64,000 nt of DNA from Escherichia coli. GTDB lineage: Bacteria > Pseudomonadota > Gammaproteobacteria > Enterobacterales > Enterobacteriaceae. The stretch lies in the NCBI RefSeq assembly GCF_003334355.1, contig NZ_QOWP01000006.1. One strand, written 5' to 3'. Below the pieces are notes generated by a model. That model was not told where the DNA came from and searched no databases. It saw only the letters and a list, made by a program, of their open reading frames with translations. Positions 20,892-50,976 of this stretch are shown here, piece by piece. Position 1 is the first letter of the stretch. Each line of letters opens with the position of its first letter. The translations under genes and the position numbers were made by a program.

Positions 20892-21584
20892 TTAGTTTAA
20901 GTTCACTTCTCTGACCGGGGTTACTGAACCATAATCATTAACGGTCTGAAATTTCAGCTTTCCCTGCACTCCTGAGGGTAAGGGAATTTGTGAATTAACT
21001 CTGGGTGCAGCCATAGCATTCCCCAACTTTTGGTTGCCCACTTGTAAGTTAACCAGAGTGACATAAAAAGGTGAGGGATTATGAACATTGATATAGTTAC
21101 CGGATCGCGAAAACTTGAGTGTGTCCGGTGCTTCTGCGGGTAATTCTTGTAATTGAATTAGACGGAGAAATAATTTCATGCGCGATAAAATCGCCAGTTG
21201 CAAAACATTCCTGCCGTTCAATGCATTTTTATCTACCGAAGGGATCGTCTTAACATTCATCCAGAACAGAGACTCACGATCTGCTGCCAGCGGTGGACCG
21301 GTGTAAATAATACGCAAGGTATTTTCGCTTTTGGGTTCACTAACAAACAGTGGCGGTGTAATGATGAATGACTTTTCTTTTACACCGCTGCTGTTTTCAA
21401 TCCACGAATTGACCAGAAAGCGCTCATTGGTATGGCTATTTCTAATCCATACCGCAGTCTGTTTAGCATCAGCGGGATAAATAATACGCGTGGCACCTAA
21501 TGCGATCCCTCCGGCAGCATGGGCGCTGGCCGAAATGATTAAATAAAATATAATGAGCATCAATAACTTTATTTTAGTCATCAT
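20892..21584 (-). CDS. sfmC: SfmC periplasmic fimbrial chaperone
   Basis: 230-aa ORF with signal peptide and PapD-like features. Confidence 0.85.
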
Positions 21585-29177: not shown

Positions 29178-30071
29178 CTACAGCGAAATACAGGTCCCCG
29201 CTTCGCCCGCCAGCGTCTCTTCAATTCGCGATAACGCCCCAATCCACGCGGGTTTACCACAGCTTCTGACATAACCACTCACCGCCGTTACCTTCGGCCC
29301 CATCGAACCATCGGCTTTGGCAAATGGCGCTAACTCATCCGGTGTGGCATGGCGAATGGCGCGTTGCTGCGGCGTTCCCCAGTTTTCATATACCGCATCA
29401 GCATCAGTGAGGATCACCAGCCCATCGGCGTTAATCTGCTCAGCGAGCAACGCAGCAGCGAGATCTTTATCAATCACCGCTTCACTCCCTGCCCCATCTT
29501 CCGTCACAGGCACACCGCCGCCGCCACTGCAAATCACCACATGCCCCTCTTTGAGCAACAACTCGATGGCTTCGCTGTCGAGAATTTTACGCGGTTGCGG
29601 AGACGCCACCACCCGGCGCAAATATTTACCATCACGTTTCATCTGCCAGCCGTAAGCCGCTTCCAGTGCCTCTTGTTCTTCTGGCTGATAAACCGGACCA
29701 ATAAATTTCTCTGGCTGCAAAAACGCCGGATCATCAGGCGAAACCTCAATGCGCGTCAGCACCGTCGTCACGGGCGGCATCTGCGGCTGTGCGCTCAAAC
29801 TCTGCGCCAGCATATAGCCAATCATCCCCTGACTTTCTGCCACCAGCACATCCAGCGGATACGGTTCTACCTCTTTCCACGCCAGATTCTGCAATGCCAG
29901 CAGCCCCACCTGCGGCCCGTTGCCGTGAACAATCGCCAGCCGATAAGAACGGGCCAGGCGCGCCAGCGCGGGTACAGCACTGGCGATATTGCGATATTGA
30001 TTTTCTGCCGTCAGCGCCTCACCGCGCTGAAGCAAGGCATTGCCCCCAAGAGCTACAACCAGTGTTTTCAT
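29178..30071 (-). CDS. ybcF: carbamate kinase-like protein
   Basis: 297 aa, carbamate kinase family features; synteny. Confidence 0.8.
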
Positions 30072-30883
30072 GGTTTTCCTTGTAATAATTGTTGACCAAG
30101 CCAGAACCCCAGCAGGGTATCTGCCCCTGACGTATGCCCCAGCGCCAGCAGCGAATCAATCGCAACAGCGGTACGTTTCGGGCAACTCAGAGCATGAACA
30201 AAGTGCAGGAGTGGCGAGGCGAAATATCCTTGCGCGGCATAACGTAAATAACTGACGCTCACCGCTGTGGTAACGAGTTGCAGATTGTCGGAACAGGCAA
30301 AAAACTGGCGACCGGAGCGCGCATCTAAAGCGCCATAATACCAGGCCGCCAGCAGCATTCCGCTCAGCGTGTCATCATGACTCGGCGTTAATCCGGGGCC
30401 TTTACCCAGCCAGTGCCGCCAGTCGGTCTTAACGCCATTGAGCGCGGCCTGAAAACAGTGACGAAACTGGCGTAACTCAGCAGGCAGCGGATCGCTTGCC
30501 GCCAACGCCAGTGGCCCGAAAAGCCCGGTTTCCTCCGCGCGTTGCATCCATGCAGCTGCAAGTGGTTGAGGATGCGCAGGCGGCGTAATACGCAGCAAAC
30601 AATAACGCTGTGGCTGTTTAACCGTGAAACGCCCGAGGCGAATCCCTTGAGTCACAACCTGTGGTCGTTCATTGCCGCATAATCCACCGCATAACGCATC
30701 GAATTGCGCACGGCGAAGCATCCATCCTCCGGGGCCGAAACCACTACCCTGACGATGCAGCGTTAACAGTTCGCCGCTTTCCGTCATCAGGTTAATCGCC
30801 CGCCGCCACACTCCCGCTAACCGCCAGGACTGGCGATAATTCGGTGCGCTACTACTGGCAAGCAGAGGATGGATGATCGTCAT
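30068..30883 (-). CDS. ylbF: YlbF (DUF2877) protein
   Basis: 271 aa from [12 protein letters not shown]; start chosen inside longer track ORF. Confidence 0.7.
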
Positions 30884-30893
30884 TGCGCGTTCC

Positions 30894-32153
30894 TCAACCA
30901 ATCCCCATGCTTTCAGCCAGTGCTTCCAGCGCCTGTTCAAAACACGCCAGCGGTGCCCGCACAGTGCCTGCGCCAATCTGCCCGATCCCCGCCTCTTTAT
31001 GGGCGATACCGGTATTGATGAGTGGCGTAATGCCGGTTTCTACCACGCGACGAATGTCCAGTCCCAGGCACGCGCCCTGAAAATCCCAGCCTGGGATCTG
31101 CAACTGCATATTGCGCTCAAGGTAAATTTCCGCCATCTCTTCAGATACCGCTCTGGCCGCTTCCATGCCACCCGCACCGACAAAGCGCGTTACGCCAGGC
31201 GCTGCGATCATTGCCGCACCTCCGATACCAAAGGTTTCGGTAATCGCGCTATCGCCCATATCCGGGTTCGCCTGCTCCTGCGAGAAGCCGGTGAAAAACA
31301 GACCTTGCGGAGTGTTTACAGGCGCAGTAAACCAGCGTTCGCCCAGCCCGCTTACCCGAATCCCGAACATATTGCCGTTGCGGGTCATTGCCGTGACGAT
31401 GCTGCCTGCGCGGATCATCGCGCCAGCATCCATCGCCGCCTTGCAGTAAGCCATCGCGAGGTTGAGGAAGAACTGATCGGTCACGCTGAGGAAATCCATC
31501 ACTTCGGCGATGTGCTGTTTATCATGATCGAGGCGAGCAATTTGTGGGGCCAGCGCACGCATTAACAGTGCAGAGGAAGCAATATTGCGTTGATGGAACT
31601 CATCGCCCATCGTAATGCCCTGCGCCATCATCGCCGTGAGATCGATACCGCGCTCCATGCGCCCCAGCGCCGCGCTTAATACTGGCATTAACACATCGCG
31701 CATCCAGCGATGGCGAGTCAGGACATCTTCGCCGTAAGCGCCAAAACGCATCACTTTGCCGATACCTTCGTTGAGGTTGCAGTACGCCCGGTTGCCGTCG
31801 GTCACGTTCTCGACCACCAGCATCGGCATACTGGCAGAAGTAATACCGCCCATTGGACCGACGGCATTCACATGGTGACAAGGAATGAAGTTCACTTCCC
31901 CCTGCTCCAGTATTGCCAGCGCCTGCGCTTCATCTTTCACCCAGCCTTCGAACAGACATGCGCCCACGCACGCCCCTTTCATGGGTCCGGTCATCTCCTG
32001 CCAGCGCATTGGCGGCCCGGCGTGAAGCAGTGTTTTGCCCTCGTTTAGTTCGCTGATAAGTGAAGAAGCCGGTTGCACATCCAGCCAGTGTGGACGAGCG
32101 CGACGAATTTGTTCGATAACCGCAGCATTGGCTTGCGCTACTGATGTAAACAT
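30894..32153 (-). CDS. ylbE: YlbE (DUF1116) protein, intact
   Basis: Uninterrupted 419-aa ORF. Confidence 0.75.
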
Positions 32154-32162
32154 GGGAACCCC

Positions 32163-33830
32163 TTATTGCAAACGTTCTAATAAACGAGCCAGTTTTTTAT
32201 TGCCGCCGGCGACTGGCGACCATTGGTAATGCACAACCGGTTTGCTGGCGCTTTGTAGCTCCAGCGCAAAGCTGCGTAATCCGATGTTAATCACGGCGAC
32301 GTTTTCCAGTAATGACGGTGTGTGTTGCTGAGTGGCAGGCGAAAGCGGACGAATCAGTGCCGCCGCCAGCAAGGTGGCTTCCGGCAGCGAACTCACTACC
32401 GCGATCCCTGCATCTTCCAGCGTGGCGATTTGCTGCGAGCGGCATTGCGGGTCACGTTCAGTGCCTGTCACCGTGGCAATGGCATACAGTGGTTGATTGT
32501 CTGAAAGCGCGGCACATGCTTTTTGCCAGGCGCTTACCAGCGAGGCGGCAGGATCGGCGGTCGCACCGAAGCCAATCACGACATCAAGCAGCAATACGCG
32601 CACTTGCGGTTTAGCGCCGAGATCGGCAATTAACTGGTTGCGTAAGGCTGGGTCGATCATCGGATGGGGACGCCCGACGGTGTAGAAATCATCGCCGAGG
32701 TCAATAATCTGGTGACCATCAGCGTCGAGCATCATGCCGTGATGATGGGTATCGTCGGCTTCCACGCCAAGGTGTCCAGCAAGTAATCCCGCCGCTTCGG
32801 CAGCCAGCGTACCGCCGGTATACAAACCGCAAATAAATCCGCTGCTGACAGGCGCTATTGCGTTACGTCGCGCCGTGACACGTGAAAGCAGGCAAGCCAG
32901 GCGTGCGGCCTCATCCAGCGAGGAGGCAAACCAGACATTCTCGTCGCGGGCCACCGCCGGGGTATAACCTAAAAACAGCGCCACCGTCGGTTTGCCGGTT
33001 GCTTTCATGGCATTAACAATTTTCAGACGCACAGCTTCGGCAGGCGGTTTTGAAACAAATGCCAGCACTTCGCTTTTCTCGTCTGCACTGAGCATTTCCA
33101 GCGCCGTCAGCGCACTGATGCCGCCTACTTCACGGCTGAGGTCGCGCCCGCCAAGGCCAATCGCGTGAGTAATTCCCTCCCCTGCCAGCGCAATCTGCGA
33201 GCACAGCTCCTGAATCCCGGTACCGGAAGCGCCAATGACGCCAATGTTGCCTTCCGGCATCACGTTAGCAAAAGCCAGCGGCGTGCCGGCAATCATCGAC
33301 GTACCGCAGTCCGGCCCCATCACCAGCAAGCCTTTTTCTCGCGCGCGGGTTTTAAGTTGGATTTCATCTTCCAGCGTGACGTTATCGGAGAACATCATCA
33401 CGTTGAGGTTGCGATCCAGCGCCTGATTCGCCAGCTCCGCCGCATACTCGCCAGCCACTGAAATCAGCGCCAGACTGGCATCGGGTAATTTCTGACAGGC
33501 GCTGTCCCAGCGACGCACCTGCGTCAACGCCTGGCTGCTGCCTGACCCCTGCGCCAGTTGTTTTAGCGCCTCTTCAAGCTGCTGCATAATCGCCTGCGCG
33601 ATCCCCGCATCCGCCGCTTCGCTACGAATTGCCACGCAAATATCGTTCGGCGTGGCGTTATTAAAATCGTCATGCCAGAAACCTGTGGTATCTAATAACG
33701 CTTTATTGGCGGGCGTACCCATCATTACGGAAACATCATCAACATTTTCTGATTCGCTGAGTTTTCGTGAAATAATCATTAAACTGACCGAATCCTGAAA
33801 ACACCCTTTTTTAATAAAGGCGTGGATCAT
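32163..33830 (-). CDS. fdrA: FdrA succinyl-CoA synthetase-like protein
   Basis: 555-aa ORF with CoA-ligase-like glycine-rich motifs. Confidence 0.8.
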   Translation of the reverse strand: MIHAFIKKGCFQDSVSLMIISRKLSESENVDDVSVMMGTPANKALLDTTGFWHDDFNNATPNDICVAIRSEAADAGIAQAIMQQLEEALKQLAQGSGSSQALTQVRRWDSACQKLPDASLALISVAGEYAAELANQALDRNLNVMMFSDNVTLEDEIQLKTRAREKGLLVMGPDCGTSMIAGTPLAFANVMPEGNIGVIGASGTGIQELCSQIALAGEGITHAIGLGGRDLSREVGGISALTALEMLSADEKSEVLAFVSKPPAEAVRLKIVNAMKATGKPTVALFLGYTPAVARDENVWFASSLDEAARLACLLSRVTARRNAIAPVSSGFICGLYTGGTLAAEAAGLLAGHLGVEADDTHHHGMMLDADGHQIIDLGDDFYTVGRPHPMIDPALRNQLIADLGAKPQVRVLLLDVVIGFGATADPAASLVSAWQKACAALSDNQPLYAIATVTGTERDPQCRSQQIATLEDAGIAVVSSLPEATLLAAALIRPLSPATQQHTPSLLENVAVINIGLRSFALELQSASKPVVHYQWSPVAGGNKKLARLLERLQ

Positions 33831-34146
33831 AACAACTCCTTAAAAATTGCACCCATGGCAATTGCACGAGCAGTGTTAATGTGGCGATTACGGTATCGAT
33901 GACAACGGGTAAATAAGGTGATGAATATCACACAGGGATTATTAACAAAAGAATTCAAATAACCGCCATGCTATTACGTGTTATTTTTTAATAAGCGTGG
34001 TTGTTTTAAAAACCAGGTTAAAAGCGAGCGGATTATCAAATAAATTCTAACTATATTTTTTTGCCTGTCTGGATCACATAATCCAGATATTTTCCCTGTA
34101 TGTTAATTGCAGTCATGCTTCACACCGTCGTTAAAAAGGAAGACAG

Positions 34147-35196
34147 ATGAAAATCAGTCGGGAAACACTCCACCAGCTAATTGAGAATAAACTCTGCCAG
34201 GCTGGGTTAAAACGTGAGCACGCTGCAACCGTGGCTGAAGTATTGGTTTACGCCGATGCCAGAGGGATCCACTCTCATGGCGCGGTGCGCGTGGAATACT
34301 ACGCGGAACGCATTTCAAAAGGCGGCACCAACCGCGAACCGGAGTTTCGTCTTGAGGAAACCGGGCCGTGCTCGGCAATTTTACATGCCGACAATGCCGC
34401 CGGACAGGTCGCGGCGAAAATGGGTATGGAACATGCCATCAAAACCGCCCAGCAAAATGGCGTTGCGGTGGTCGGTATCAGCCGGATGGGTCACAGCGGC
34501 GCAATCTCTTATTTTGTGCAGCAGGCAGCCCGCGCCGGATTCATTGGCATTTCGATGTGCCAGTCCGATCCAATGGTGGTGCCGTTTGGCGGCGCGGAAA
34601 TTTACTACGGTACTAACCCCCTGGCCTTTGCCGCGCCGGGAGAAGGCGACGAGATCCTTACCTTTGATATGGCGACTACCGTACAGGCATGGGGAAAAGT
34701 GCTCGACGCCCGCTCGCGTAATATGTCTATCCCGGATACCTGGGCGGTCGATAAAAACGGTGTACCAACAACCGATCCGTTCGCGGTACATGCTCTGCTC
34801 CCCGCCGCCGGGCCAAAAGGGTATGGCCTGATGATGATGATTGACGTCCTCTCAGGCGTCTTACTCGGCTTACCGTTCGGGCGACAGGTTAGTTCGATGT
34901 ATGACGATTTACACGCAGGGCGTAATTTGGGGCAATTACATATAGTTATTAATCCGAACTTTTTCTCCTCCAGCGAATTATTCCGTCAACATCTTAGCCA
35001 GACCATGCGCGAATTAAATGCCATTACCCCCGCGCCCGGTTTTAACCAAGTTTATTATCCCGGACAGGATCAGGATATTAAACAACGCAAAGCCGCCGTC
35101 GAAGGCATCGAAATTGTTGATGATATTTACCAGTATTTAATTTCCGACGCGCTTTATAACACGTCATACGAAACGAAAAATCCCTTTGCGCAATAA
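34147..35196 (+). CDS. allD: ureidoglycolate dehydrogenase
   Basis: 349 aa, Ldh_2-family. Confidence 0.85.
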   Translation: MKISRETLHQLIENKLCQAGLKREHAATVAEVLVYADARGIHSHGAVRVEYYAERISKGGTNREPEFRLEETGPCSAILHADNAAGQVAAKMGMEHAIKTAQQNGVAVVGISRMGHSGAISYFVQQAARAGFIGISMCQSDPMVVPFGGAEIYYGTNPLAFAAPGEGDEILTFDMATTVQAWGKVLDARSRNMSIPDTWAVDKNGVPTTDPFAVHALLPAAGPKGYGLMMMIDVLSGVLLGLPFGRQVSSMYDDLHAGRNLGQLHIVINPNFFSSSELFRQHLSQTMRELNAITPAPGFNQVYYPGQDQDIKQRKAAVEGIEIVDDIYQYLISDALYNTSYETKNPFAQ

Positions 35197-35295
35197 TTAT
35201 TGAGACAGGACTTTCTTATGATTACACATTTTCGTCAAGCCATAGAAGAAGCGCTGCCCTAGCTTTCCTCATTTGGCGCTGACCCAACGGGTGGG

Positions 35296-36453
35296 ATGAC
35301 CCGTTTACTTTATTCGCCGGAATGGCTGGAAACCCAGCAGCAATTTAAAAAAAGAATGGCAGCAAGCGGGCTGGAAACACGTTTCGATGAAGTGGGGAAT
35401 TTATACGGTCGCCTGAGTGGCACCGAATATCCACAGGAAGTGGTTCTGAGCGGTTCGCATATCGATACCGTGGTTAACGGCGGTAACCTCGACGGGCAAT
35501 TCGGCGCGCTGGCGGCGTGGCTGGCAATTGACTGGTTGAAAACGCAATACGGCGCGCCGCTACGTACGGTCGAAGTGGTGGCGATGGCAGAAGAAGAAGG
35601 CAGCCGCTTCCCGTATGTCTTCTGGGGCAGTAAAAATATCTTTGGGCTGGCGAATCCTGACGACGTGCGGAATATCTGTGATGCCAAAGGAAATAGTTTT
35701 GTCGATGCGATGAAGGCTTGCGGATTTACTCTGCCGGACGCCCCGCTAACTCCGCGTCAGGATATTAAAGCCTTTGTCGAACTGCATATCGAACAGGGCT
35801 GTGTGCTGGAAAGTAATGGGCAATCAATTGGCGTGGTGAATGCAATTGTCGGGCAACGTCGCTATACGGTGACGCTGAACGGCGAATCAAACCATGCAGG
35901 CACCACGCCGATGGGTTATCGTCGTGATACGGTTTACGCTTTCAGTCGCATTTGCCATCAGTCGATCGAAAAAGCGAAAAAGATGGGCGACCCGCTGGTT
36001 CTGACCTTTGGGAAAGTAGAGCCGCGCCCGAATACGGTGAATGTGGTGCCGGGTAAAACCACGTTCACCATTGATTGTCGTCATACCGACGCCGCCGTGC
36101 TGCGTGATTTCACCCAACAGTTAGAAAACGACATGCGGGCGATTTGCGATGAAATGGACATTGGTATTGATATCGATTTATGGATGGACGAAGAACCCGT
36201 GCCGATGAATAAGGACCTGGTCGCCACCCTGACAGAATTGTGTGAAAGTGAAAAACTGAATTACCGGGTGATGCACAGTGGTGCCGGGCACGACGCGCAA
36301 ATTTTCGCGCCTCGCGTGCCGACCTGCATGATTTTCATTCCCAGCATCAACGGGATCAGCCATAACCCGGCGGAACGCACCAATATTACCGACCTTGCCG
36401 AAGGGGTCAAAACGTTGGCACTCATGCTTTATCAACTTGCCTGGCAGAAATAA
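35296..36453 (+). CDS. allC: allantoate amidohydrolase, longest uninterrupted frame (upstream native-looking start at 35218 is cut off by an in-frame TAG)
   Basis: 385-aa ORF from an internal Met; ATG at 35218 with 14 sense codons then TAG at 35260-35262, same frame. Confidence 0.8.
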   Translation: MTRLLYSPEWLETQQQFKKRMAASGLETRFDEVGNLYGRLSGTEYPQEVVLSGSHIDTVVNGGNLDGQFGALAAWLAIDWLKTQYGAPLRTVEVVAMAEEEGSRFPYVFWGSKNIFGLANPDDVRNICDAKGNSFVDAMKACGFTLPDAPLTPRQDIKAFVELHIEQGCVLESNGQSIGVVNAIVGQRRYTVTLNGESNHAGTTPMGYRRDTVYAFSRICHQSIEKAKKMGDPLVLTFGKVEPRPNTVNVVPGKTTFTIDCRHTDAAVLRDFTQQLENDMRAICDEMDIGIDIDLWMDEEPVPMNKDLVATLTELCESEKLNYRVMHSGAGHDAQIFAPRVPTCMIFIPSINGISHNPAERTNITDLAEGVKTLALMLYQLAWQK

Positions 36454-36463
36454 GGAGTCATAA

Positions 36464-37249
36464 ATGGGATATTTAAATAACGTCACCGGTTACCGCGATG
36501 ATTTACTGGCTAACCGTGCGATTGTGAAACACGGTAATTTCGCACTGTTAACCCCGGACGGTCTGGTAAAAAATATTATTCCGGGCTTTGAAAATTGTGA
36601 CGCGACAATCCTCTCCACGCCAAAGCTGGGTGCCTCTTTTGTTGATTATCTGGTCACACTGCATCAAAACGGCGGCAACCAACAGGGCTTCGGTGGCGAA
36701 GGCATTGAAACGTTCCTGTATGTGATCACTGGAAATATCACTGCCAAAGCCGAAGGCAAAACATTTGCCTTAAGCGAAGGTGGCTATCTTTATTGCCCGC
36801 CAGGCTCCTTAATGACGTTTGTTAACGCCCAGGCCGAAGACAGCCAAATCTTTTTATATAAGCGCCGCTATGTTCCGGTAGAAGGCCATGCACCGTGGCT
36901 GGTTTCTGGCAATGCCAGCGAACTGGAACGCATTCACTATGAAGGTATGGATGATGTGATCCTGCTGGATTTTCTGCCCAAAGAGTTAGGTTTTGATATG
37001 AACATGCATATCCTCTCTTTTGCACCAGGTGCCAGCCATGGTTATATCGAAACACATGTTCAGGAACACGGTGCCTATATTCTTTCCGGTCAGGGGGTTT
37101 ATAACCTCGACAATAACTGGATCCCGGTGAAAAAAGGCGATTACATCTTTATGGGCGCTTATTCTTTACAGGCTGGTTATGGTGTAGGGCGTGGTGAAGC
37201 GTTCAGCTATATTTACTCGAAAGATTGCAACCGCGACGTAGAGATTTAA
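36464..37249 (+). CDS. allE: ureidoglycine aminohydrolase (cupin)
   Basis: 261 aa, synteny after allC. Confidence 0.8.
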   Translation: MGYLNNVTGYRDDLLANRAIVKHGNFALLTPDGLVKNIIPGFENCDATILSTPKLGASFVDYLVTLHQNGGNQQGFGGEGIETFLYVITGNITAKAEGKTFALSEGGYLYCPPGSLMTFVNAQAEDSQIFLYKRRYVPVEGHAPWLVSGNASELERIHYEGMDDVILLDFLPKELGFDMNMHILSFAPGASHGYIETHVQEHGAYILSGQGVYNLDNNWIPVKKGDYIFMGAYSLQAGYGVGRGEAFSYIYSKDCNRDVEI

Positions 37250-37291
37250 GTCATACCACTCGCCTGATTATTTTTAGCTATGTTGGATTTT

Positions 37292-37318
37292 GCCACGGTT
37301 TATACCGTGGCTTTTTTT
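37292..37318 (+). terminator. Rho-independent terminator after allE
   Basis: GCCACGGTTTATACCGTGGC hairpin followed by TTTTTTT. Confidence 0.7.
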
Positions 37319-37476
37319 GTAACATTGCCTGATGCGCTTCGCTTATCAGGCCTACATGATCTCTGCAATATATAGAATTTGCGCGATTTTCAGGAAGGAT
37401 ATAGTACTCATGCCGCATCCGGCATGAGTACTGCGCTCTTATACGAAATAAATAGCATCCGCTTTAAAGGCAAGAG

Positions 37477-38622
37477 TCAGTTTTTAATTCCCTGACCTAT
37501 TTTAATGGCGCAGGCAATATTTCGCGCGCTGTTGAAGAGATTGATTTCACCGCTGGCGAGTACTTCGGCTAAAGGTGCCAGACGTGGCAAAATGCTGAAT
37601 ACCGCATCAATGCCATACTGGTGCACCACTTCCACGCCATCACCCAATACGCCAGCAATCCCAATCACCGGTACATTAAACTGCTTCGCCACCGACGCCA
37701 CACCCAGCGGCGCTTTACCGCCTGCCGTTTGCGAGTCGATGCGCCCTTCCCCGGTAATCACCAGTGCTGCGCCCTGCACTGCCTGCGCAAGATTGACCGC
37801 ATTCAACACAATCTCAATACCTGGTTTAATATCCGCATTGAGAAATACCGCCGCCGCAATACCCATACCGCCCGCAGCGCCGCCGCCCGCCATCTGGCAG
37901 ACGTTGATTTCAGTTTGCTGTTGTAAAACACGGGCGTAATTTTGCAGCCCCTGTTCCAGCTCTTCGACCATTTCCGGCGTTGCCCCTTTTTGCGGGCCAA
38001 ACACCGCCGCCGCGCCGCGTGCCCCTACCAGCGGGTTATCAACGTCACATGCTACTTCAATATGGCAATTCGCCAGACGCGGATCGCATTCATCCATCTC
38101 AATGCTTGCCACGCGCGCTAAATTACCGCCGTTAGCCACCAGCACCTGACCGTCGGCATCAAGGAAACGCACACCGAGCGCCTGCGCCATGCCCATACCG
38201 CCGTCGACCGTCGCACTGCCGCCAATGCCGAGAATAATATGGCGAATGCCGTTATCCAGCGCATGACGAATTAACTCCCCCGTACCAAAACTGGAGGCCA
38301 GCAACGGATTACGCTTTTCAGGCGCGACCAGCATCAGGCCACTTGCTGCCGCCATCTCAATCACCGCCGTTTTCCCGTCGCCGGTAAGGCCATAAAAAGC
38401 ATTCACTGTTTCGCCCATCGGCCCGCAGACTTCAAGCGTCACGATGTTGCCGCCCGTCGCGGCGACCATCGCATCCACCGTTCCTTCGCCGCCATCCGCT
38501 ATCGGCAAACAGATATAGTGCGCATCGGGAAAGAGGGTCGAAAACCCGGCTTTAATTGCCTGGCAACATTTTTCTGCACTTAAGCTCTCTTTAAAAGAGT
38601 CTGGCGCAATGACAATCTTCAT
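37477..38622 (-). CDS. glxK: glycerate 3-kinase
   Basis: 381 aa from [16 protein letters not shown]. Confidence 0.85.
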
Positions 38623-38643
38623 TATCAATCCTTTTTCAACAAA

Positions 38644-39945
38644 TTATTCGATGCGTTCCCACGGAATAAGATTATCCATAAGAACAGCCAGTAAAATCCC
38701 GACCAATAAGCCGTTACTGAGCAGAGGACGCAGCGTTAATGGAAGGTCTTGCAGATACACAGGCGGTAATGCCATTAAAAATATGCCGACAAATAACGGC
38801 AATGCGAGTCGATAAATATTGCGAGCGGTAAAGGTTATTTGCTGGCTAAACACCAGCGCGGAAAAGAGTAAAGGCAGATAAGAAACCAGCATGACCGCGC
38901 TACTCACGGGTAAAGGGATACTGCAAAACAGTCGTGTGAGTGCCGGAACCAGCGCCACCAGCAGGCAAATAACGCTGCCATAAATAAACGAACGCCGCGT
39001 GTAATCGCCAGTCTGGGTTAATAAACCAATGGATGAAACAAACGGTGAAAATGGAATTACCGCCAGCGGTACGGTTATCAGCGTCATAAATCCGGTCGCC
39101 ACAAAGCTACGACGATAACGCGTATTCCCCGCGCCCTGCTGCGGATAAAAAACATCCGTGCCCCGAATCGCACCGTAGGTATTGCTGATATTCACCAGAC
39201 CTGTAATCACCGCCGTCAGAATAATTCCCGGCGACAAAGCACCGCCACTGCCGAGCGGGAACCACTGCCAGTGCAACTCACCGGAGAGCGAATGCGAAGA
39301 AGGAAAGCAAAAGTACCACAACAACCAGCCGGTTATCGTACCGACCAGCAGGCCATAACGGGCAAAACGTTGCGGCAGAAAGATAATCATCGCCAGTACC
39401 AGGCACATCACCGCCACCGAGAGCGCGAACGGTGGTAACTGAATTTTAAAATTTGGGTCGGCTATGCCAAACGGCAGCCCGAGCATACCTTTGAAAAAGA
39501 TAGTGGTCAGCTGCGCGCCCAGCATCAACATAAACAAGACCATCACCGACGGCGTAAATAACCGTGCCAGGCGATGGCCTAATCCGCTAAAACCAATCAA
39601 CATCGTCAGCACGCCGGAGAGTGCAATCCCCACCGCCAGACTGGTAGCGATATCGTTGATCGGTGTCCCGCGCGATGCTTCGCCAAGGGTGATAGTAAGG
39701 ATGGTTCCCCACCACAGGCCACCCGGCCCTTCCATAATAGCGCGACGATGACCGCAGAACGCCTGAGCGAAGCAGGCCAGTGCGGTAGCAAGAAAAGCAT
39801 ATTGCGTGAGCGTAAGCAGGCTACTTTGCGGCAACTGAAAAGCAGAAAGTAGCGTAGGAGGAACCACAACCGTGTTGCAAAAAATAAAGAAAAACCACTG
39901 AAATCCTGATAACAGGCTTTCGCGGCTGACTGCAAAATTGAACAT
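38644..39945 (-). CDS. ybbY: putative purine/uracil permease family protein YbbY
   Basis: ~433-aa polytopic membrane ORF, synteny. Confidence 0.75.
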   Translation of the reverse strand: MFNFAVSRESLLSGFQWFFFIFCNTVVVPPTLLSAFQLPQSSLLTLTQYAFLATALACFAQAFCGHRRAIMEGPGGLWWGTILTITLGEASRGTPINDIATSLAVGIALSGVLTMLIGFSGLGHRLARLFTPSVMVLFMLMLGAQLTTIFFKGMLGLPFGIADPNFKIQLPPFALSVAVMCLVLAMIIFLPQRFARYGLLVGTITGWLLWYFCFPSSHSLSGELHWQWFPLGSGGALSPGIILTAVITGLVNISNTYGAIRGTDVFYPQQGAGNTRYRRSFVATGFMTLITVPLAVIPFSPFVSSIGLLTQTGDYTRRSFIYGSVICLLVALVPALTRLFCSIPLPVSSAVMLVSYLPLLFSALVFSQQITFTARNIYRLALPLFVGIFLMALPPVYLQDLPLTLRPLLSNGLLVGILLAVLMDNLIPWERIE

Positions 39946-40001
39946 AAACACACCTTAACCGGAGAATGCCCGCCGCAAGGACGGGCATTGCAGGGGCCAG
40001 A

Positions 40002-41363
40002 TTACTGCTGATGTTTAAGGATAAATTGACCTTTCGGCGCAACAGGGAAGCCCTGTTCAATGTCGTAAATCACATCACCACGTAAGATGGTTTTCGTGAT
40101 ACGCGCGCCAATGGTACGGCCAACATACGGGCTGACTTTGTGGCGATATTCCAGATCGTCATTGGTAAGAACATAGCTGCTATTCGGCTGAATGAAGACG
40201 AAGTCGGCATCTTTTCCTGGGGCGATACGGCCTTTTTGCTGCAGACCGAAAATATCTGCTGCGTTAGTCGCCATTAATTTGCCGAACATTGGCAGAGACA
40301 TTCCGCGTTTCTGTACCGCTTCATCGAACATCACGTCCATACAGTTTTGCAGACCGGCAATACCGCCCCATGCTTCCATGATGTTGCCGGCTTTCATTTC
40401 CGGAGGGCATGGTGAGTGGTCGGAAACCAGGCAGTCGATTTCACCGTTAAACAGTTTTTCCCACATGCCTTTCTGGTTTTCCAGATCGCGGATCGGCGGT
40501 GAACACTTCGCCAGAGTACCGATTTCTTCGAACTGATCGGTATCCAGTACAAAGTAATGCGGGCAGAATTCACAAGTAACATCCTGACCTTCCTGACGTG
40601 CACGAATCACTTCTTCAACACCTTCTGGGCTGCTGATATGGCAAATGTGCAGACGGCAACCGGCAACTTTCGCCAGGTACAGTACGCGGCGAATCGCTTC
40701 CATTTCGGTAAATACCGGACGCGAAGCCACATAGTCATGGGCAGTTACACGACCTTCACTTTTCGCTTCTTCGCCCAGTGCATCACAGATCAGCGCGTTT
40801 TCGCAGTGCACCAGCACCGGCTGCCCCAGTTCGCCCAGCTTCTGCGCACCTTTGAAGAACTGCCAGTCGTTTACATCACGGAAGTCGTTGTCGATACCGC
40901 GATCGCCACAGGTCGCAACGAAGCATTTGAAGCCGACAACGCCCACTTCATCCAACTCATGCAGACGATCAATGTTGTAAGACACCAGGCCACCGAGTTG
41001 TGCCGCATCGATAGTCAGCTTGCCTTTAGCGGCATCGAACTTCAGTTCAATTGAAGCACGGTCAACCGTTGCAGGCAGCTGGTTGAGCGGCATTTCGATC
41101 ATGGTGGTGATACCACCTTTTGCCGCTGCGCGAGTACCGGTTTCATAACCTTCCCAGTGGCTACGACCCGGTTCAGAAATATGGGTGTGCGCATCAACCA
41201 TGCCCGGCGAAACCACCAGACCAGACGCATCCATAACTTCTTTTGCATCGCCCAGATCCTGACCGATAGCAGCAATTTTTCCGCCTTTAACGGCGATATC
41301 TACAACGCGAGCTTCGTTTTCTAAAATAACGGTGCCGTTTTTAATGATTAAATCAAAAGACAT
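40002..41363 (-). CDS. allB: allantoinase
   Basis: 453 aa amidohydrolase (DAHTH metal-binding motif). Confidence 0.9.
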
Positions 41364-41422
41364 AACAAACTCCTTGTAAAATACAGATTGGTTTTTAACT
41401 CAATGTTCAATATCGGGATTAA

Positions 41423-42877
41423 TTAACCTATGGTTTTTTGCTCTCCTGTTTTTTCTGCTGTTGTACGTTTCTTTAATAAGGCGTAGGCCGCAAAGGCGAC
41501 GATGACGCCGACAAACCATGAAACACGCGATAACGGTTCCATAAAGTGAATAAACTTACCGCCAAGAGATAAAATAACGGCCACCAGAGTTACTGAAAAC
41601 GCAGTGAGGTTAAAACCGTTATCGTAATATTTATAATCGCCAGGTGCGGTATACAGTTCATCAAGATTAATTTGTCCGCGCATCACCACAAAATAATGCG
41701 CCATCATGACACCAATTACCGGACCAAGCATTCCGCCGATAATATCGAGGAAAAGATAAATGCTGTCCTGATTTTCCATTAATTTCCACGGGCAGATCAG
41801 CAAGCTGATAATACTGGCAATCAGTACGCCGTTTTTATAGGTCAGTTTTGTCGGTGCAATGGCGGCAATCTGATAACCGGCTGGAATAATATTACCGGTC
41901 GCGTTAGTGGAGATAGTTGTCATCAGAATAACCAGTACCGCAAAGAACGAGGCGAACAGGCTGTCCCAACGCTGAACAATATCCAGCACGTTCCAGGTAT
42001 CAGCGCCGTAGTGAATACTGACTCCGGCAATAATACATACCCCGGCGACCGCAAACAGAATATAGGCCACAACTAAACCCAGCGTTTGCCCCAGCGCCTG
42101 CTCACGAAACGAGTGGGCGTTTTGCGTAAAGTCGGATGCGCTCACCGCCGGTGCCGCCCAGACCGCAACTACCGCGTTAATCACCACCAGGAACAGGAAG
42201 CCACCGTTTTCTGCTTTCTGAATACCGCTCGGAATGTAGTCAAAGATTGGACCGATCCCGACCAGTGAAATCGCCCAAATCGCCATACCGCCGAAAACGA
42301 TATAGATGCACGGGTTAAGAATGGCAGTGAATTTATTTAAAACTTTGCCACCGCCAAAACCTATACCAACGTTGACCAGCCAGAAGATTAAGAAAGTAAT
42401 TAAGCCCGGTAGAGAAAGGCCTAACAGAGTGAAATCACCACCGAGAGTTAAAAATCCCGGCCAGATTTTGCCAATCAGAATCAAGCAGGCCAGTGACCCC
42501 GCGTAACATTGCAAACCAAACCACATGATGGCGGCAATTCCGCCCCTTAATAATCCGGGAAACAGTGCACCACGTACACCGTAAGAAGCACGCAGGATCA
42601 TGGCAAAAGGCACACCGTATTTACTGCCCGCAGCACCGTTTAATACCATTACCGCGGCAATGAAAAAGGCGCTGAGGATAATTGCCAGCATAATACTAAA
42701 GGTAGACAAGCCGAGAATAAAAAAGCCGCCGACCATCACATAATTGGGAACGTTATGAACCGAACCCATCCATAAGGTAAAATAGTTAAATGTTTTCCAG
42801 GTCCGCTGGCTTTGCGTTTTCGGCAATAGATCTTCGCTATAGCCGCGTTGCTGGAATAGTTTTCTCTGATGTTCCAT
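41423..42877 (-). CDS. ybbW: allantoin permease (NCS1 family)
   Basis: 484-aa membrane transporter, synteny. Confidence 0.85.
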   Translation of the reverse strand: MEHQRKLFQQRGYSEDLLPKTQSQRTWKTFNYFTLWMGSVHNVPNYVMVGGFFILGLSTFSIMLAIILSAFFIAAVMVLNGAAGSKYGVPFAMILRASYGVRGALFPGLLRGGIAAIMWFGLQCYAGSLACLILIGKIWPGFLTLGGDFTLLGLSLPGLITFLIFWLVNVGIGFGGGKVLNKFTAILNPCIYIVFGGMAIWAISLVGIGPIFDYIPSGIQKAENGGFLFLVVINAVVAVWAAPAVSASDFTQNAHSFREQALGQTLGLVVAYILFAVAGVCIIAGVSIHYGADTWNVLDIVQRWDSLFASFFAVLVILMTTISTNATGNIIPAGYQIAAIAPTKLTYKNGVLIASIISLLICPWKLMENQDSIYLFLDIIGGMLGPVIGVMMAHYFVVMRGQINLDELYTAPGDYKYYDNGFNLTAFSVTLVAVILSLGGKFIHFMEPLSRVSWFVGVIVAFAAYALLKKRTTAEKTGEQKTIG

Positions 42878-43045
42878 AAATCCCTCTTAATTTCACGTAT
42901 CGAATAACGTTGTTTTAATCTAGCTATGAGGAACAAATAAAATAAAAATATTATTTTTAATACTGAAGCAACATCTTTGGCTGCTTTCTTTTTTAATATT
43001 GCTGGCCGATTCATTTTCTGATATCGGCCATTTTTATTGCGGGTA

Positions 43046-43924
43046 TCAGGCCAGTTTATGGTTAGCCATTAATTCCAGCGCCTGCACTAACGCAGAGTGA
43101 TCCAACTGGCTGCCACCGTTTGCCGCACAGGTATTAAATAACTCCTGGCAGGTCGCAGTGTTTGGCAGGTTCAGCGCAAGTGCTTTCGCACTTTGCAGTG
43201 CCAGGTTGAGATCTTTCTGGTGCAGAGCGATTTTGAAGCCCGGATTAAAGGTGCGTTTAATCATACGCTCGCCATGAACTTCCAGAATACGTGAGGAAGC
43301 AAAGCCGCCCATCAGCGCCTGGCGCACACGTACCGGGTCCGCACCGGCTTTTGAAGCAAATAGCAGGGCTTCAGAAACCGCTTCAATATTGAGCGCCACG
43401 ATAATCTGATTTGCCACTTTGCAGGTTTGACCATCGCCGTTACCGCCCACGAGGGTGATATTTTTACCGAGCAGTTCAAACAGCGGTTTAACACGTTCAA
43501 ATACCGCTTCATCACCGCCAACCATAATCGACAACGTCCCTTCACGCGCACCGATTTCACCGCCGGAGACTGGCGCATCGAGATAATCGCCGCCCAGTTC
43601 ATTCACCTGACGAGCGAAACGCTTAGTTTCAATCGGGGAAATGGAGCTCATATCAACAATGGTTTTGCCCTTCAGCGAGGCTTTGGTACAACCATTTTCA
43701 CCGAACAGAACTTCTTCAACCTGAGGTGTGTCCGGCACCATAATAAAAATGATGTCCGATGCTTCCGTTACCTGGCGAGCAGTTTCAACACTGACGGCAC
43801 CCAGTGACAGTAATTCATCAGCAACCGGTCCAATGGTCGTGACATGTAATTGATGACCGGCACGCGCCAGATTAATGGCCATCGGTGTACCCATAATGCC
43901 TAAGCCAATAAATCCCAGTTTCAT
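43046..43924 (-). CDS. glxR: tartronate semialdehyde reductase
   Basis: 292 aa, N-terminal GLGIMG Rossmann motif. Confidence 0.9.
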   Translation of the reverse strand: MKLGFIGLGIMGTPMAINLARAGHQLHVTTIGPVADELLSLGAVSVETARQVTEASDIIFIMVPDTPQVEEVLFGENGCTKASLKGKTIVDMSSISPIETKRFARQVNELGGDYLDAPVSGGEIGAREGTLSIMVGGDEAVFERVKPLFELLGKNITLVGGNGDGQTCKVANQIIVALNIEAVSEALLFASKAGADPVRVRQALMGGFASSRILEVHGERMIKRTFNPGFKIALHQKDLNLALQSAKALALNLPNTATCQELFNTCAANGGSQLDHSALVQALELMANHKLA

Positions 43925-44023
43925 AATTAACCTCTTTTAAATTTCGCTTTTCCTGAATTCAGACAACACGATCCCCTGCCAACTTAGCGGCCTAAAAAAG
44001 CATTGTCTGAATAGCGTTACGTT

Positions 44024-44800
44024 TTAACGGTACGGATCCATCCAGCGTAAACCGGCTTCCGTGGTGGTTTGGGGTTTATATTCACACCCAACCCAACCGT
44101 TGTAGTCAGAATTTTCGATTACCTTAAAGAGATAATCATAATTAATTTCTCCGGTTCCCGGTTCGCCGCGATGCGGATTATCGGCAATTTGCAGGTGACC
44201 AATTTTATCAGCCCACTGAGTCATGGTGTTGGTTAATTCACCTTCCATCCGCTGCATGTGATAAATGTCATACTGAATTTTCAAATTGCAGCAACCAACA
44301 TCATCAATCAATTTCAGCGCCTGCCGAGTTCCGGTGAGATGGAAACCAGGAATATCAAAATGGTTAATAGGTTCAATCAGTAATAAAATATCTTCTTTCA
44401 TCAGCATATTCGCGGCATAACGCAGGTTTTCTACAAGCGTTGCGTGAATCTGTTCACTGCTGAAACCAGCCGGCGTTTTACCGACCAGACAGTTAATTTT
44501 TTTATTACCCAGCGCACGGGCATAACGAATCGCTGCTGCTACGCCATCCCGAAACTCTTCTTCACGGCCAGGAATACAGGCAATACCGCGCTCCCCCGCC
44601 GCCCAGTCACCCGCCGGTAAATTGTGCAGCGTATGTTCGAGTTTATTACTCGCCAGCACATGTTTTAATTCTTCAATGTCGTAGTCATAAGGAAACATAA
44701 ATTCAACGCCGCGAAAACCACACTGCGCAGCTTTCTCAAAACGGGCGAGAAAATCATATTCTCCAAATAACATCGATAAATTAGCAGAGAAACGTAACAT
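44024..44800 (-). CDS. hyi: hydroxypyruvate isomerase
   Basis: 258 aa, synteny. Confidence 0.85.
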   Translation of the reverse strand: MLRFSANLSMLFGEYDFLARFEKAAQCGFRGVEFMFPYDYDIEELKHVLASNKLEHTLHNLPAGDWAAGERGIACIPGREEEFRDGVAAAIRYARALGNKKINCLVGKTPAGFSSEQIHATLVENLRYAANMLMKEDILLLIEPINHFDIPGFHLTGTRQALKLIDDVGCCNLKIQYDIYHMQRMEGELTNTMTQWADKIGHLQIADNPHRGEPGTGEINYDYLFKVIENSDYNGWVGCEYKPQTTTEAGLRWMDPYR

Positions 44801-44812
44801 TATTTATCTCCC

Positions 44813-46594
44813 TTATTCATAGTGCATGAAGCAGGTTTCAGTCGGTGCGTCCGCTGCGTTATCGGCGATATCTTCAAATTCCATGACGTTATCCAGTTCG
44901 CTGCCCATCGAAATATTGGTCACACGCTCGAGAATAACTTCCACGACTACCGGTACCCGATATTGCGCCATTAAGGCTTTCGCCTGTTCAAAGGCTGGCG
45001 CAATATCTTCCGGTTTGAAGACCCGAATAGCTTTACAACCTAAACCTTCCGCTACTTTTACGTGGTCAACACCGTAGCCATTCACTTCACTGGAGTTGAT
45101 ATTCTCGAAAGCGAGTTGCACGCAGTAGTCCATGTCAAAAGCGCGTTGTGACTGACGAATCAGGCCGAGATAGGCGTTATTCACCAGCACATGGATGTAC
45201 GGAATGTTGAACTGCGCGCCAACGGCTAACTCTTCAATCAGGAACTGGAAGTCAAAGTCGCCAGAAATCGCCACCACATTGCGTTTCGGATCAGCGGCAC
45301 AAACCCCCAGCGCCGCCGGAATCGTCCAGCCTAACGGACCAGCCTGACCACAGTTGATCCAGTGGCGGTCTTTAAAGACATGCAGCATTTGTGCCGCAGC
45401 GATTTGTGACAAACCAATGGTGGTGACATAGCAAACATCGCGACCAAAGGCTTTGTTCATCTCTTCATACACGCGCTGCGGTTTCACCGGCACGTTGTCG
45501 AAATGGGTTTTGCGCAGCAAAGTGCGTTTGCGCTGCTGGCAGTCGGCGACCCATTCTTTACGACACGGCAGACGACCCGCTTTTTGCATCTCCTGCGCCA
45601 CTTCAACCAGCAGTGTCAGCGCCGCTTTAGCATCAGAGACAATGCCGAGATCCGGACACAGCACGCGACCAATTTGCGTCGGCTCAATATCGATATGAAC
45701 GATTTTGCGCCCTTCGGTGTATTTCTCTACCGAACCGGTATGACGGTTAGCAAAACGGTTACCGATACCAAACACCATGTCGGACGCCAGCAACGTTGCG
45801 TTACCGTAACGATGCGCGGTTTGCAGACCCACCATCCCGGCCATCAGTTCATGATCGTCCGGGATACAGCCCCAGCCCATCAGCGTTGGGATCACCGGAA
45901 CGCTGGTCAGTTCAGCAAACTGTTGTAACAGTGCAGCTGCGTCAGCATTAATTACCCCGCCCCCGGCAACAATCACCGGACGTTCGGCCTGGATTAACAT
46001 TTCTACAGCTTTTTCGATCTGCATACGGCTGGCAGCAGGTTTGTAGACCGGCAGCGGTTCGTACATGTCAGGATCAAACTCGATTTCCGCAACCTGAACG
46101 TCGAACGGTAAATCCACCAGTACCGGACCCGGACGACCAGAACGCATCAGGTGAAATGCCTGTTGCAGCACGCGAGGCACCAGCGCCGCTTCACGAACTG
46201 TAACCGCCATTTTGCTGACCGGTTTAGCAATTGCTTCAATATCTACGGCCTGAAAATCTTCTTTATGCAGACGGGCGCGCGGTGCCTGGCCGGTAATGCA
46301 CAGAATAGGAATGGAATCAGCAGAAGCGGAATAGAGCGCGGTGATCATGTCCGTGCCCGCAGGACCGGAAGTCCCCAGACATACGCCGATATTTCCTGCC
46401 GTTGCGCGGGTATAACCTTCCGCCATGTGCGAAGCACCTTCCACATGACGCGCCAGAATGTGACGAATACCGCCGTGCTTACGCATCGCTGAGTAGAACG
46501 GATTGATTGCAGCTCCCGGAACACCGAAGGCGGTGGTGATACCTTCTTTCTCCAGCACATACATTGCCGCGTCAACGACTCTCATTTTTGCCAT
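44813..46594 (-). CDS. gcl: glyoxylate carboligase
   Basis: 593 aa from [18 protein letters not shown]; ThDP-enzyme family. Confidence 0.9.
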
Positions 46595-46614
46595 TTTATT
46601 CCTACCTCTATTTA

Positions 46615-46631
46615 TTGGAAAATTTTTCCAA
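46615..46631. promoter_or_regulatory. AllR operator in gcl promoter
   Basis: Perfect palindrome TTGGAAAATTTTTCCAA just upstream of gcl. Confidence 0.6.
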
Positions 46632-46646
46632 CTTTCAAATTTTGTC

Positions 46647-46671
46647 AAAAAAACCCGCTCCGCAGAGCGGG
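46647..46671 (-). terminator. Rho-independent terminator after allR
   Basis: Minus strand: CCCGCTC..GAGCGGG hairpin followed by TTTTTTT. Confidence 0.65.
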
Positions 46672-46683
46672 ATGCGACAGACA

Positions 46684-47499
46684 TTATGGATGTGCTTTCA
46701 GTCCCAACGCCGTGCTGATATCGCGGGCGGTGTCTCTGACCAGCTCACCCTGACTGACAAAACGATCTTCTGTCAGTCTTGATGAAGGCCCGGAGATGGA
46801 GATAGCGGCAACAACACTACCGACATCATCGTAAATTGCTGAAGCTATGCAATTCAGACCTACAACATGCTCTTCTTTATCTACGGTATAGCCCAGTTCA
46901 CGCGCTTGTTCCAGGTCCTTCAGCAAGGTGGGCATATCCACAAGCGTAGTTGGCGTAAACTGCTGCAAACCGGTTTGCAGAATGATGCTCATCAACTCCT
47001 CTTCCGCCAGCGGATAAAGCAGCGCTTTGCCCGCACCGGAAGCATGCAGTGGCAGACGACTGCCCAGTGGCGCACACATCCTGACCATCGATTTACACTC
47101 TAACTGACCAATTAATACCGCTTCATTGCCGTTACGGATCGCGACATTGACCGTTTCGCCGGAAAGTAACATCAGGCGGCGCATAAACGGCCCGGCGACG
47201 GAGAGGACATCGCGGTTATGGATGTACGCCGCACCGACGTTAAAGACACCTAATCCTATATGCCACCAGCCTAATTGACTGTCCTGATAGACAAAATCCG
47301 CTGCCTGTAAAACCTTCAGCAAGCGAAAGGTCGTGGAGAGCGGCAAATCCAGATTGAGAGAAATATCGCTAACCGACGAACTTCCCCCACTTTTTTCCAA
47401 ATATTGCAGAATCGCAATTCCCCGCTCTAACGCCTGTGCGCCCTTCTGTGCCACAGGCTCCGCCTGTCCTGGCCTGCCGCGCCGTCTAACTTCCGTCAT
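46684..47499 (-). CDS. allR: IclR-family allantoin regulon repressor
   Basis: 271 aa, IclR architecture. Confidence 0.9.
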
Positions 47500-47576
47500 A
47501 CCTACGTTAACTCCGACCTACAAGTGAGCATAAACAATGAACAATTAGTTTATCTTATGCAAGTCGGTTGCAGGCG

Positions 47577-48059
47577 TCACGCAAAACAGAGTTCCTGTTC
47601 AGGAATACTTTCAACATCACAGTTGTCACTGCCGCCGCGATCGATGGTCAGAAAATCGGTGACGCGCTGCCAGGCGAAAAGTGGGTGATGCCAGACGTTA
47701 CGATGGTAATTCACTCCCTGTTCGCCGTTGGTGATAAACGCCCGCAGCGTTGACAGGTCTGGTTTGTCGTCACCTAACGCCACGACCACCACAAACACCT
47801 CACCTTTCATCGGGATAAAGGCCTGAGTACCCAGCGGATGACGTTCGAGTTCGTGAATGGTCAGCGGCAGATTCGCCGGTTGCGCGCGGTTAATGCTGAT
47901 AAGCGTACGGTCTTGCTCAAGAATCTCAACCAGCGCCAAATCGTGGTAACGCTCCACCAGGCCATTGTTAATATGGAAAAAATCCCGTTGCTGCGTTTCG
48001 ATTACGTCGCCATAAGCACTAAAGGCTTCCTGACTTAACGGTAATACCTGAAGTTTCAT
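47577..48059 (-). CDS. allA: ureidoglycolate lyase
   Basis: 160 aa, synteny. Confidence 0.9.
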
Positions 48060-48164
48060 CTTTTTGTCCTTGTAACATAATTCCGTTCAACCACCGCCGA
48101 CCGGTCAGCTTGGTTTCAATAACAGGCAATCTAAAACCTTAAGAGAACAACATCAATACAAAAG

Positions 48165-48181
48165 TTGGAATATTTTTCCAA
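48165..48181. promoter_or_regulatory. AllR operator in allS-allA divergent promoter region
   Basis: Palindrome TTGGAATATTTTTCCAA, near-identical to the gcl site. Confidence 0.6.
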
Positions 48182-48288
48182 AACTAGATTTAGTCCACAA
48201 ATTGAACAGGGTTATCATGTAAAAATACTGATAAATCAGAGGATAAGAAAATCACGCAACTTGCGGATTTAAAAGGGGATACCTGAAG

Positions 48289-50378: not shown

Positions 50379-50441
50379 TGGGCGGTATTCTGAAACGGCG
50401 ATTGTCGTGAGAACAGAATGGTTGCACCAGAATACAGATAT

Positions 50442-50529: not shown

Positions 50530-50535
50530 AAGTGA

Positions 50536-50873: not shown

Positions 50874-50891
50874 CTGAGGAAACGTAGCTAA

Positions 50892-50945: not shown

Positions 50946-50976
50946 CATATTTATTGCCAAAATGCACACTGTTCAT

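Follow-up and report, generated by a model that had tools for sequence, protein, structure and literature searches.

In Escherichia coli, allC stands in the middle of the three-gene operon allD-allC-allE, which AllS activates and which lies within the 17-gene ALL cluster (PMC12535856). Its product, allantoate amidohydrolase (also called allantoate deiminase), converts allantoate into ureidoglycine, NH3 and CO2, and the pathway is blocked after allantoinase when this step is lost (PMC11326118). Deletion of allC in K-12 lengthens the lag that precedes recovery from long nitrogen starvation (PMC7417836). In host-restricted Salmonella, decay of allantoin genes has been described for ST313 lineage II, Typhi, Paratyphi A and Gallinarum (PMC4372345). 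Two further systems bear on the locus described here: the classic amber hotspots of lacI, where the mechanism is deamination of 5-methylcytosine at Dcm sites (PMC12606429), and termination-reinitiation between native E. coli gene pairs, which a gap of 38 nt cuts by 80-90% or abolishes (PMC10666635).

The stretch of DNA that we analysed (64 kb, hereafter the window) is Escherichia coli. It is collinear throughout with strain PSS-12 (NZ_AP027697.1, from human faeces, Ecuador); the two differ by 32 substitutions and by no indel. The genes of the ALL cluster stand in the same order as in annotated relatives, allC lies between allD and allE, and all ALL genes other than allC are intact ORFs. The allC frame itself is interrupted near its 5' end by an amber codon. 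The features concerned are as follows.

34147-35196, plus strand: allD (ureidoglycolate dehydrogenase), intact, 349 aa, opening the allD-allC-allE operon (ORF list; RefSeq annotation of collinear relatives; no internal stops).
35207-35210, plus strand: native Shine-Dalgarno core of allC, AGGA, 7 nt upstream of the ATG at 35218.
35218-36453, plus strand: allC (allantoate amidohydrolase/deiminase) frame, filed as a pseudogene, 411 codons plus stop, broken at codon 15 (translation).
35218-35262, plus strand: residual 14-codon ORF, MITHFRQAIEEALP, with its amber stop (sequence and translation).
35258-35262, plus strand: former Dcm site, ancestral CCTGG, present CCTAG (PSS-12 ancestral sequence and motif scan).
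35260-35262, plus strand: amber codon TAG (W15 to stop), derived through G>A at 35261.
35296-36453, plus strand: 385-aa ORF from Met27, the sole possible restart product, equal to AllC without residues 1-26 (ORF list).
36464-37249, plus strand: allE ((S)-ureidoglycine aminohydrolase), intact, closing the operon, with its own strong Shine-Dalgarno sequence.

An in-frame amber codon near the start of allC had been predicted from the sequence, and the geometry of this original prediction holds. The allD stop ends at 35196 and is followed, after a 21-bp spacer, by the ATG at 35218-35220; the TAG at 35260-35262 is codon 15, and the downstream ORF opens at Met27 (ATG 35296-35298) and ends at 36453, giving 26 + 385 = 411 residues. 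Only one wording needs correction: the ATG was said to be followed by 14 sense codons, which places the stop correctly if the ATG is counted among the 14, since 13 further codons follow it. No in-frame ATG, GTG or TTG occurs between the TAG and the Met27 ATG. The 20-mer upstream of the allC start, TATTGAGACAGGACTTTCTT, forms an anti-Shine-Dalgarno duplex of -4.0 kcal/mol, and the Shine-Dalgarno sequence of allE one of -8.8 kcal/mol.

That codon 15 is normally Trp (TGG) is borne out by the five outgroup relatives (5/5), by PSS-12 and by the K-12 AllC crystal sequences 1Z2L and 4PXD. It had been asked whether orthologues might start at the internal Met; all relatives examined start at the upstream ATG and encode 411 aa (in RefSeq: allC, allantoate deiminase). 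The crystallised K-12 protein (1Z2L, 2IMO, 4PXD) begins at the same Met and reads LPWLSS where the window reads LP-stop-LSS. With G restored at 35261, the translation matches exactly a protein found on 868 public contigs, so the frame pattern is no chance ORF. There is no uninterrupted frame from the conserved start, and because of the TAG at codon 15 we file the locus as an allC pseudogene, not as a functional member of the family.

Is the amber codon a genuine feature of the organism? Over the 1,236 bp of allC, the window differs from the intact allele WP_001362424.1, carried by MLI023K1, O121 201805972, PSS-12 and VL7S7, at the single position 35261, where G>A turns TGG into TAG. Since all five outgroups have G there, the A is derived. 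A single-base difference from otherwise identical alleles is the form that a sequencing or assembly error would take, the true codon then being TGG. However, the same A recurs in data that were assembled separately. The exact 385-aa product is called on Logan contigs from ERR4578542 (one contig standing for six samples, that is, ERR4578542 and five others) and SRR3823860, which match the window at 100% identity along 8.2 and 6.2 kb, respectively, with the A included; GCA_014464935.1 at NCBI is identical to the window over two 21-kb stretches, again with the A, and three similar places add to these. The independent assemblies L004, L005, L012, L017 and L022 carry the same base at 35261. Identity to the window in such assemblies is complete across 6-22 kb, and the amber base is always linked with the same 11 other private SNPs. 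The possibility, raised in the original prediction, that reads would show TGG is answered by these independent read-based assemblies, which carry A and not G at 35261. The change is present in the organism; sequencing error is effectively excluded and we give it virtually no weight. L006 (SRR35867423) was set aside as evidence for the TAG: the 385-aa product is encoded there without a difference, but the contig opens at Met27 itself and does not reach the TAG.

Public annotations appear to treat the allele as a pseudogene already. In GCA_014464935.1, the records list nothing between the allE and allD products. Protein numbering in four GenBank assemblies (OWD718xx, HAH28503xx, HAM46983xx and RCQ249xx) jumps by exactly one gene between allB and allH, a gap that, judged from the numbering, fits a pseudogene annotation of allC there.

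The allele is also rare. Among 5,426 complete E. coli genomes, none contains the 31-mer centred on the TAG. For a 601-bp stretch, the seven best matches among complete genomes are each one base off, this base being 35261 in PSS-12 and in the two whose bases were compared one by one. Within 15 nt of 35261, genomes fall into three sequence backgrounds. For the two other than that of the window, TAG-bearing 61-mers gave no full-length 100% match among 2,353 and 2,239 genomes (about 4,600 complete genomes); these searches had a built-in positive control in the thousands of 98.4% matches, which are the TGG genomes. Among public contigs, two or three carry the truncated product, against 868 with the intact allele. 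In view of this rarity, and of the absence from complete genomes on all three backgrounds, the allele belongs to one small clone.

What would a protein starting at Met27 lack? With W15 restored, AllC, of the M20 hydantoinase/carbamoylase family, scores 830.9 bits against the NCBIfam equivalog NF006768 (cut-off 532), matching positions 1-411 of 411, and 767.6 bits against TIGR03176 (cut-off 597.75). For the 385-aa ORF by itself the scores are 788 and 736 bits, respectively, and coverage is confined to profile positions 27-411 and 23-406. Across three curated family models (two AllC equivalogs and a hydantoinase/carbamoylase subfamily, the N-terminus being included in all), this ORF begins at profile positions 27/411, 23/406 and 21/401, with 25-43 bits lost. 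We also examined 134 full-length homologues from a library clustered at 50% identity. At least 20 residues stand ahead of the Met27 column in every one of them (134/134; median 28), and columns 6-26 have hardly any gaps, L9, L13, L16, I/F19, G20, G25 and G26 being conserved. The Met27 column usually holds V, I or L; Met is found in only 9 of the 134 homologues, so this residue is not a conserved alternative start. Position 15 is variable across homologues (E, A, T, Q) and W15 is unconserved, hence the damage would lie in the truncation and not in the loss of tryptophan. In an alignment-based AlphaFold2 model (mean pLDDT 97.7), residues 2-17 form a confident helix, so that the product from Met27, which would have neither this helix nor conserved positions 6-26, is predicted to form an incomplete fold. 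The invariant residues of the family are kept (D57, S80, H81, D92, E188, H190, E192, R288, D359, E386 and others, from columns of 91 sequences), and past 35261 the nucleotide sequence of allC is that of the intact allele.

A functional truncated AllC (residues 27-411) might still be made by reinitiation, or by de novo initiation, at the Met27 AUG. Two overlapping features surround this AUG.

35286-35305, plus strand: predicted 7-bp hairpin AACGGGT/ACCCGTT, with the Met27 AUG in its loop (RNA fold).
35289-35295, plus strand: Shine-Dalgarno-like GGGTGGG, part of the predicted hairpin.

The AUG is in frame, 33 nt past the stop, with no competing start between. The GGGTGGG element pairs with the anti-Shine-Dalgarno at -7.0 kcal/mol, a value that beats 61% of the annotated starts of the window and ranks in the highest 6% for ATG triplets, so that some truncated protein could be made. 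Early nonsense mutations in lacI, encoding the lac repressor, give restart fragments. In the case of allC, all of the invariant residues, from D57 onward, lie downstream of Met27, the 385-aa ORF is untouched and stands above the AllC equivalog cut-off (788 versus 532 bits), and the allele has lasted long enough to turn up in several data sets. The local context is less favourable: anti-Shine-Dalgarno pairing ends about 1 nt before the AUG, which itself sits in the hairpin loop, and native reinitiation is nearly lost at a 38-nt gap (PMC10666635). The deleted segment contains the confident helix 2-17 and is present in 134/134 homologues, none of which starts near the Met27 column, and it belongs to all three curated models. 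Given these features, we consider it very unlikely that a useful enzyme is made from Met27. The hairpin at 35286-35305 was also picked up in a terminator-like scan.

Alternatively, the amber codon may be read through, by a suppressor tRNA or by near-cognate decoding, to give useful amounts of full-length AllC. Position 15 tolerates many residues (E, A, T, Q), so that any inserted amino acid would probably do, and rare near-cognate readthrough would yield active enzyme, W15 being unconserved. The base after the stop is C, which makes for one of the weaker contexts for termination in E. coli. Against this, basal UAG readthrough is typically well below 1%, the sequence contains nothing resembling a recoding signal, and no suppressor tRNA is found within the window, where tRNA-Arg(TCT) is the only tRNA; suppressor alleles are rare in natural isolates. 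We therefore hold readthrough on a useful scale to be extremely unlikely. Recoding by pyrrolysine or selenocysteine was dismissed, E. coli having no Pyl system and selenocysteine using UGA.

The reading that we favour is that allC in this clone is a recent pseudogene and an effective null for allantoate amidohydrolase, to which, judging from the sequence, we would give a probability of about 85%. An in-frame stop stands where relatives have a sense codon, the outgroups place the stop as the derived state, and the change is real. Translation from the native start would halt after 14 residues, and Met27 would probably serve poorly as a restart site; a product made from it would be without helix alpha-1 and the loop that precedes the conserved GG(V/M)TR motif. 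With no efficient restart and with the N-terminal segment missing, the cell would be effectively without allantoate amidohydrolase. The original prediction had left a choice between a reinitiated, truncated AllC and loss of the enzyme, and the evidence clearly favours loss.

The ALL pathway would then be blocked after allantoinase, with allantoate no longer converted into ureidoglycine. Such a strain should be unable to use allantoin as a nitrogen source under anaerobiosis, and its recovery from long nitrogen starvation should take longer. Rho-dependent polarity on allE is possible, although we offer it as speculation and would not press it, since a Rho-type scan downstream of the stop gave one modest C-rich, G-poor stretch (36319-36396; C 35%, G 18%) and since a strong Shine-Dalgarno sequence of its own precedes allE.

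The position of the mutation points to its origin. Ancestrally, 35258-35262 read CCTGG, with CCAGG on the opposite strand, and the partner of 35261 is the inner C of this minus-strand site, the base that Dcm methylates. The amber codon most likely arose through deamination of this base at the Dcm site: 5-methylcytosine in the 35261 pair would have deaminated spontaneously to thymine and escaped very-short-patch repair, converting TGG into TAG. The dcm and vsr genes are carried by most E. coli, and both lie outside the 64-kb window here. Dcm inner-C positions make up 1.15% of the G:C positions of the window, and 35261 is the only one of the 32 SNPs to fall on such a position. In allC, only W15 and the near-terminal W409 are codons able to become stops by the Dcm route. 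That the site is a Dcm methylation hotspot, and that the allele is restricted to one small clone, are observations that go beyond the original prediction.

The Dcm explanation predicts recurrence, yet no second TAG lineage was found, which counts against it: in the complete genomes searched on matching backgrounds (about 4,600), the same TAG does not recur in independent lineages. The event is thus infrequent in nature or selected against; this weakens the case for a natural hotspot and leaves the chemistry of a single event unaffected. A motif-specific deaminase signature (for example 5'-TC) was considered and rejected, the 11 G:C>A:T changes having heterogeneous contexts. Changes of this type also dominate on the PSS-12 branch (6/9), so the mutation spectrum is unremarkable.

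We polarised the 32 SNPs with the outgroups, over a polarisable span of 8.4-56.9 kb (48 kb). Twelve of the 13 derived SNPs on the window branch fall in the ALL cluster (29261-48700), with P about 2e-4 under uniformity. Eight of these change a protein (AllK R271C, AllH A78T, AllC W15 to stop, AllB V221M, T253I and S266F, Gcl A6V and AllS L138I) and four are synonymous (one each in AllH, AllF, AllB and Gcl). The four allB changes, three missense and one synonymous, are packed in 183 bp, and the search for a donor of this patch was negative: none of 5,325 matching complete genomes has even one of the four. AllB S266F adjoins the conserved CPHY motif at a position that is S or T in homologues, and positions V221 and T253 are variable. 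No intermediate haplotype that would order the 12 ALL-cluster SNPs was found; the private haplotype is always complete. AllK R271C and Gcl A6V are found elsewhere with an intact allC, on divergent backgrounds only (21-286 mismatches per locus), which indicates that they arose independently. The concentration of lineage-specific substitutions in the ALL cluster is the only mildly unusual element of the case.

Could the stop be one visible sign of broader decay across the ALL cluster, or of its adaptive loss, in a clone associated with humans? This would extend the explanation given above. It would be consistent with the placement of 12 of 13 derived SNPs in the cluster, eight of them protein-changing, with human stool as the source of the closest relatives, and with the Salmonella precedent (PMC4372345). 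Near relatives carry other lesions, an IS1 in allD (O121 201805972) and a gcl frameshift (NCTC9008), and the cluster is evidently hit often. However, 4 of the 12 changes are synonymous whereas no synonymous change lies elsewhere, so that relaxed selection alone is insufficient. Every ALL gene except allC is still an intact ORF, and two of the amino-acid variants recur on divergent backgrounds where allC is intact. A recombination patch explains the clustering equally well: the substitutions may have come in as such a patch from an unsampled close relative or, alternatively, reflect a mutation rate that is raised locally. A similar cluster of private changes is seen in nfrA-sfm of PSS-12 (6/9 SNPs), which makes ordinary mosaicism the more economical reading. 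We regard a wider decay as an unlikely, tentative extension. The stronger claim is that the whole ALL cluster of a human-gut E. coli clone is being dismantled in this lineage, with the allC stop in the lead: the 12 private substitutions in 20 kb would then reflect a locally raised mutation rate, or selection for loss of the pathway in convergence with host-restricted Salmonella, and not a chance recombination patch; this we find improbable. The private nfrA-sfm cluster of PSS-12 includes a nonsense mutation of its own, in sfmC.

Leaving the SNP cluster aside, we consider the amber allele to be a young, clade-restricted loss-of-function allele in a gene that is almost certainly knocked out, a case of ordinary recent gene loss. 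Gene, enzyme, operon and kind of lesion are all well known, as is the mutational mechanism, and the significance beyond strain annotation is little. Annotators should label allC of this clone a pseudogene, and its metabolic models should treat it as incapable of using allantoin. The allele provides a clean natural case of an amber codon arising at a Dcm site, and the clustering of private SNPs is a small lead on the loss of purine-salvage nitrogen pathways in human-associated E. coli.

How does the locus compare with its known counterparts? It shares with E. coli K-12 AllC (b0516; PDB 1Z2L, 2IMO and 4PXD) its operon context, its 411 codons and the same ATG, and the crystallised protein is nearly identical over the downstream 385 residues. 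It differs at codon 15, which is TGG in K-12, whereas the TAG in the window bars a full-length product under normal decoding. The fragments made by restart in the lac repressor, and E. coli termination-reinitiation in general, involve a comparable arrangement of an early stop followed by an in-frame AUG with an SD-like sequence, but in allC the gap is 33 nt, within the range where most native reinitiation is lost (PMC10666635), the spacing of the SD-like sequence is poor, the AUG lies in a hairpin and a conserved helix is lost.

For the mutation itself, the parallel is with the Dcm-site ambers of lacI (Coulondre et al. 1978, reviewed in PMC12606429): in what the review says of these hotspots, G:C>A:T at the second C of CC(A/T)GG likewise creates TAG. 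The lacI sites, however, are recurrent hotspots in the laboratory, whereas here we have a single natural allele, fixed in one clone, with Dcm activity that is putative. For the outcome, it is with host-restricted Salmonella (PMC4372345), where an allantoin gene is likewise knocked out by point mutation, and where the resemblance extends to the human origin of the sampled relatives of our lineage; in this clone, unlike in those lineages, one gene only is demonstrably broken.

Twelve of the 13 derived SNPs on the window's branch, counted within the polarisable interval (8.4-56.9 kb), fall in a 20-kb block of the allantoin gene cluster running from allK to allS (29261-48700; P about 2e-4), and eight of these 12 are protein-changing. 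Four lie inside 183 bp of allB (40567-40749), each of them absent from all 5,325 complete E. coli genomes compared. This excess could stem from a recombination patch or from local decay. The derived bases at 29261 (AllK R271C), 46578 (Gcl A6V) and 32721 (synonymous, in allF) were also found in E. coli whose background is clearly divergent, with 21-286 mismatches at each locus, and these three sites are therefore recurrently polymorphic in the species.

A terminator-like scan picked up one element within the allC coding sequence, with the AUG of Met27 in its loop:

35286-35305: predicted hairpin with a 7-bp stem (AACGGGT/ACCCGTT), and a T-rich stretch after it

Across the allele backgrounds examined, the stretch compared (35231-35291), which contains the 5' arm of the hairpin and not its 3' arm or T-rich tail, is unchanged in nearly all; a single relative, L018, differs, at one base.

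Two near relatives have lesions of their own in the allantoin cluster:

L002 1913-2610: allD of O121 strain 201805972, IS1A insertion
L011 37716-39496: gcl of NCTC9008, annotated frameshift

The two lesions are independent, and the gcl frameshift could be an assembly indel.

The window's cluster of changes in the allantoin genes is mirrored in the sister strain PSS-12, where nfrA-sfm (10.9-21.5 kb) takes six of the nine PSS-12-derived SNPs. PSS-12 has a private nonsense mutation, Q129* (CAA>TAA, window position 21200), in a gene that is intact in the window:

20892-21584, minus strand: sfmC, fimC-like chaperone gene

Nearer the start of the window, two genes are frameshifted in both strains, and an insertion sequence is otherwise identical between them:

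1274-5724: RHS core protein gene, frameshifted
8676-10912: nfrB, frameshifted
7269-8405: ISAs1 transposase

RefSeq labels the first two 'frameshifted' in PSS-12, and nfrB is intact in the relatives VL7S7 and NCTC9008. The ISAs1 copy differs from that of PSS-12 at seven positions, all within 133 bp (8039-8171), a clustering that suggests gene conversion from one IS copy to another.

At the other end of the window, the interval between mnmH and ybbP (50380-51090) is devoid of the rhsD-ybbC-ybbD block present there in VL7S7, and holds in its place:

50790-50873: short dinQ-like toxin ORF

The window shares this arrangement, with the ORF and no such block, with PSS-12, 1297KP and NCTC9008; K-12 has the rhsD-ybbC-ybbD block between the same two genes.
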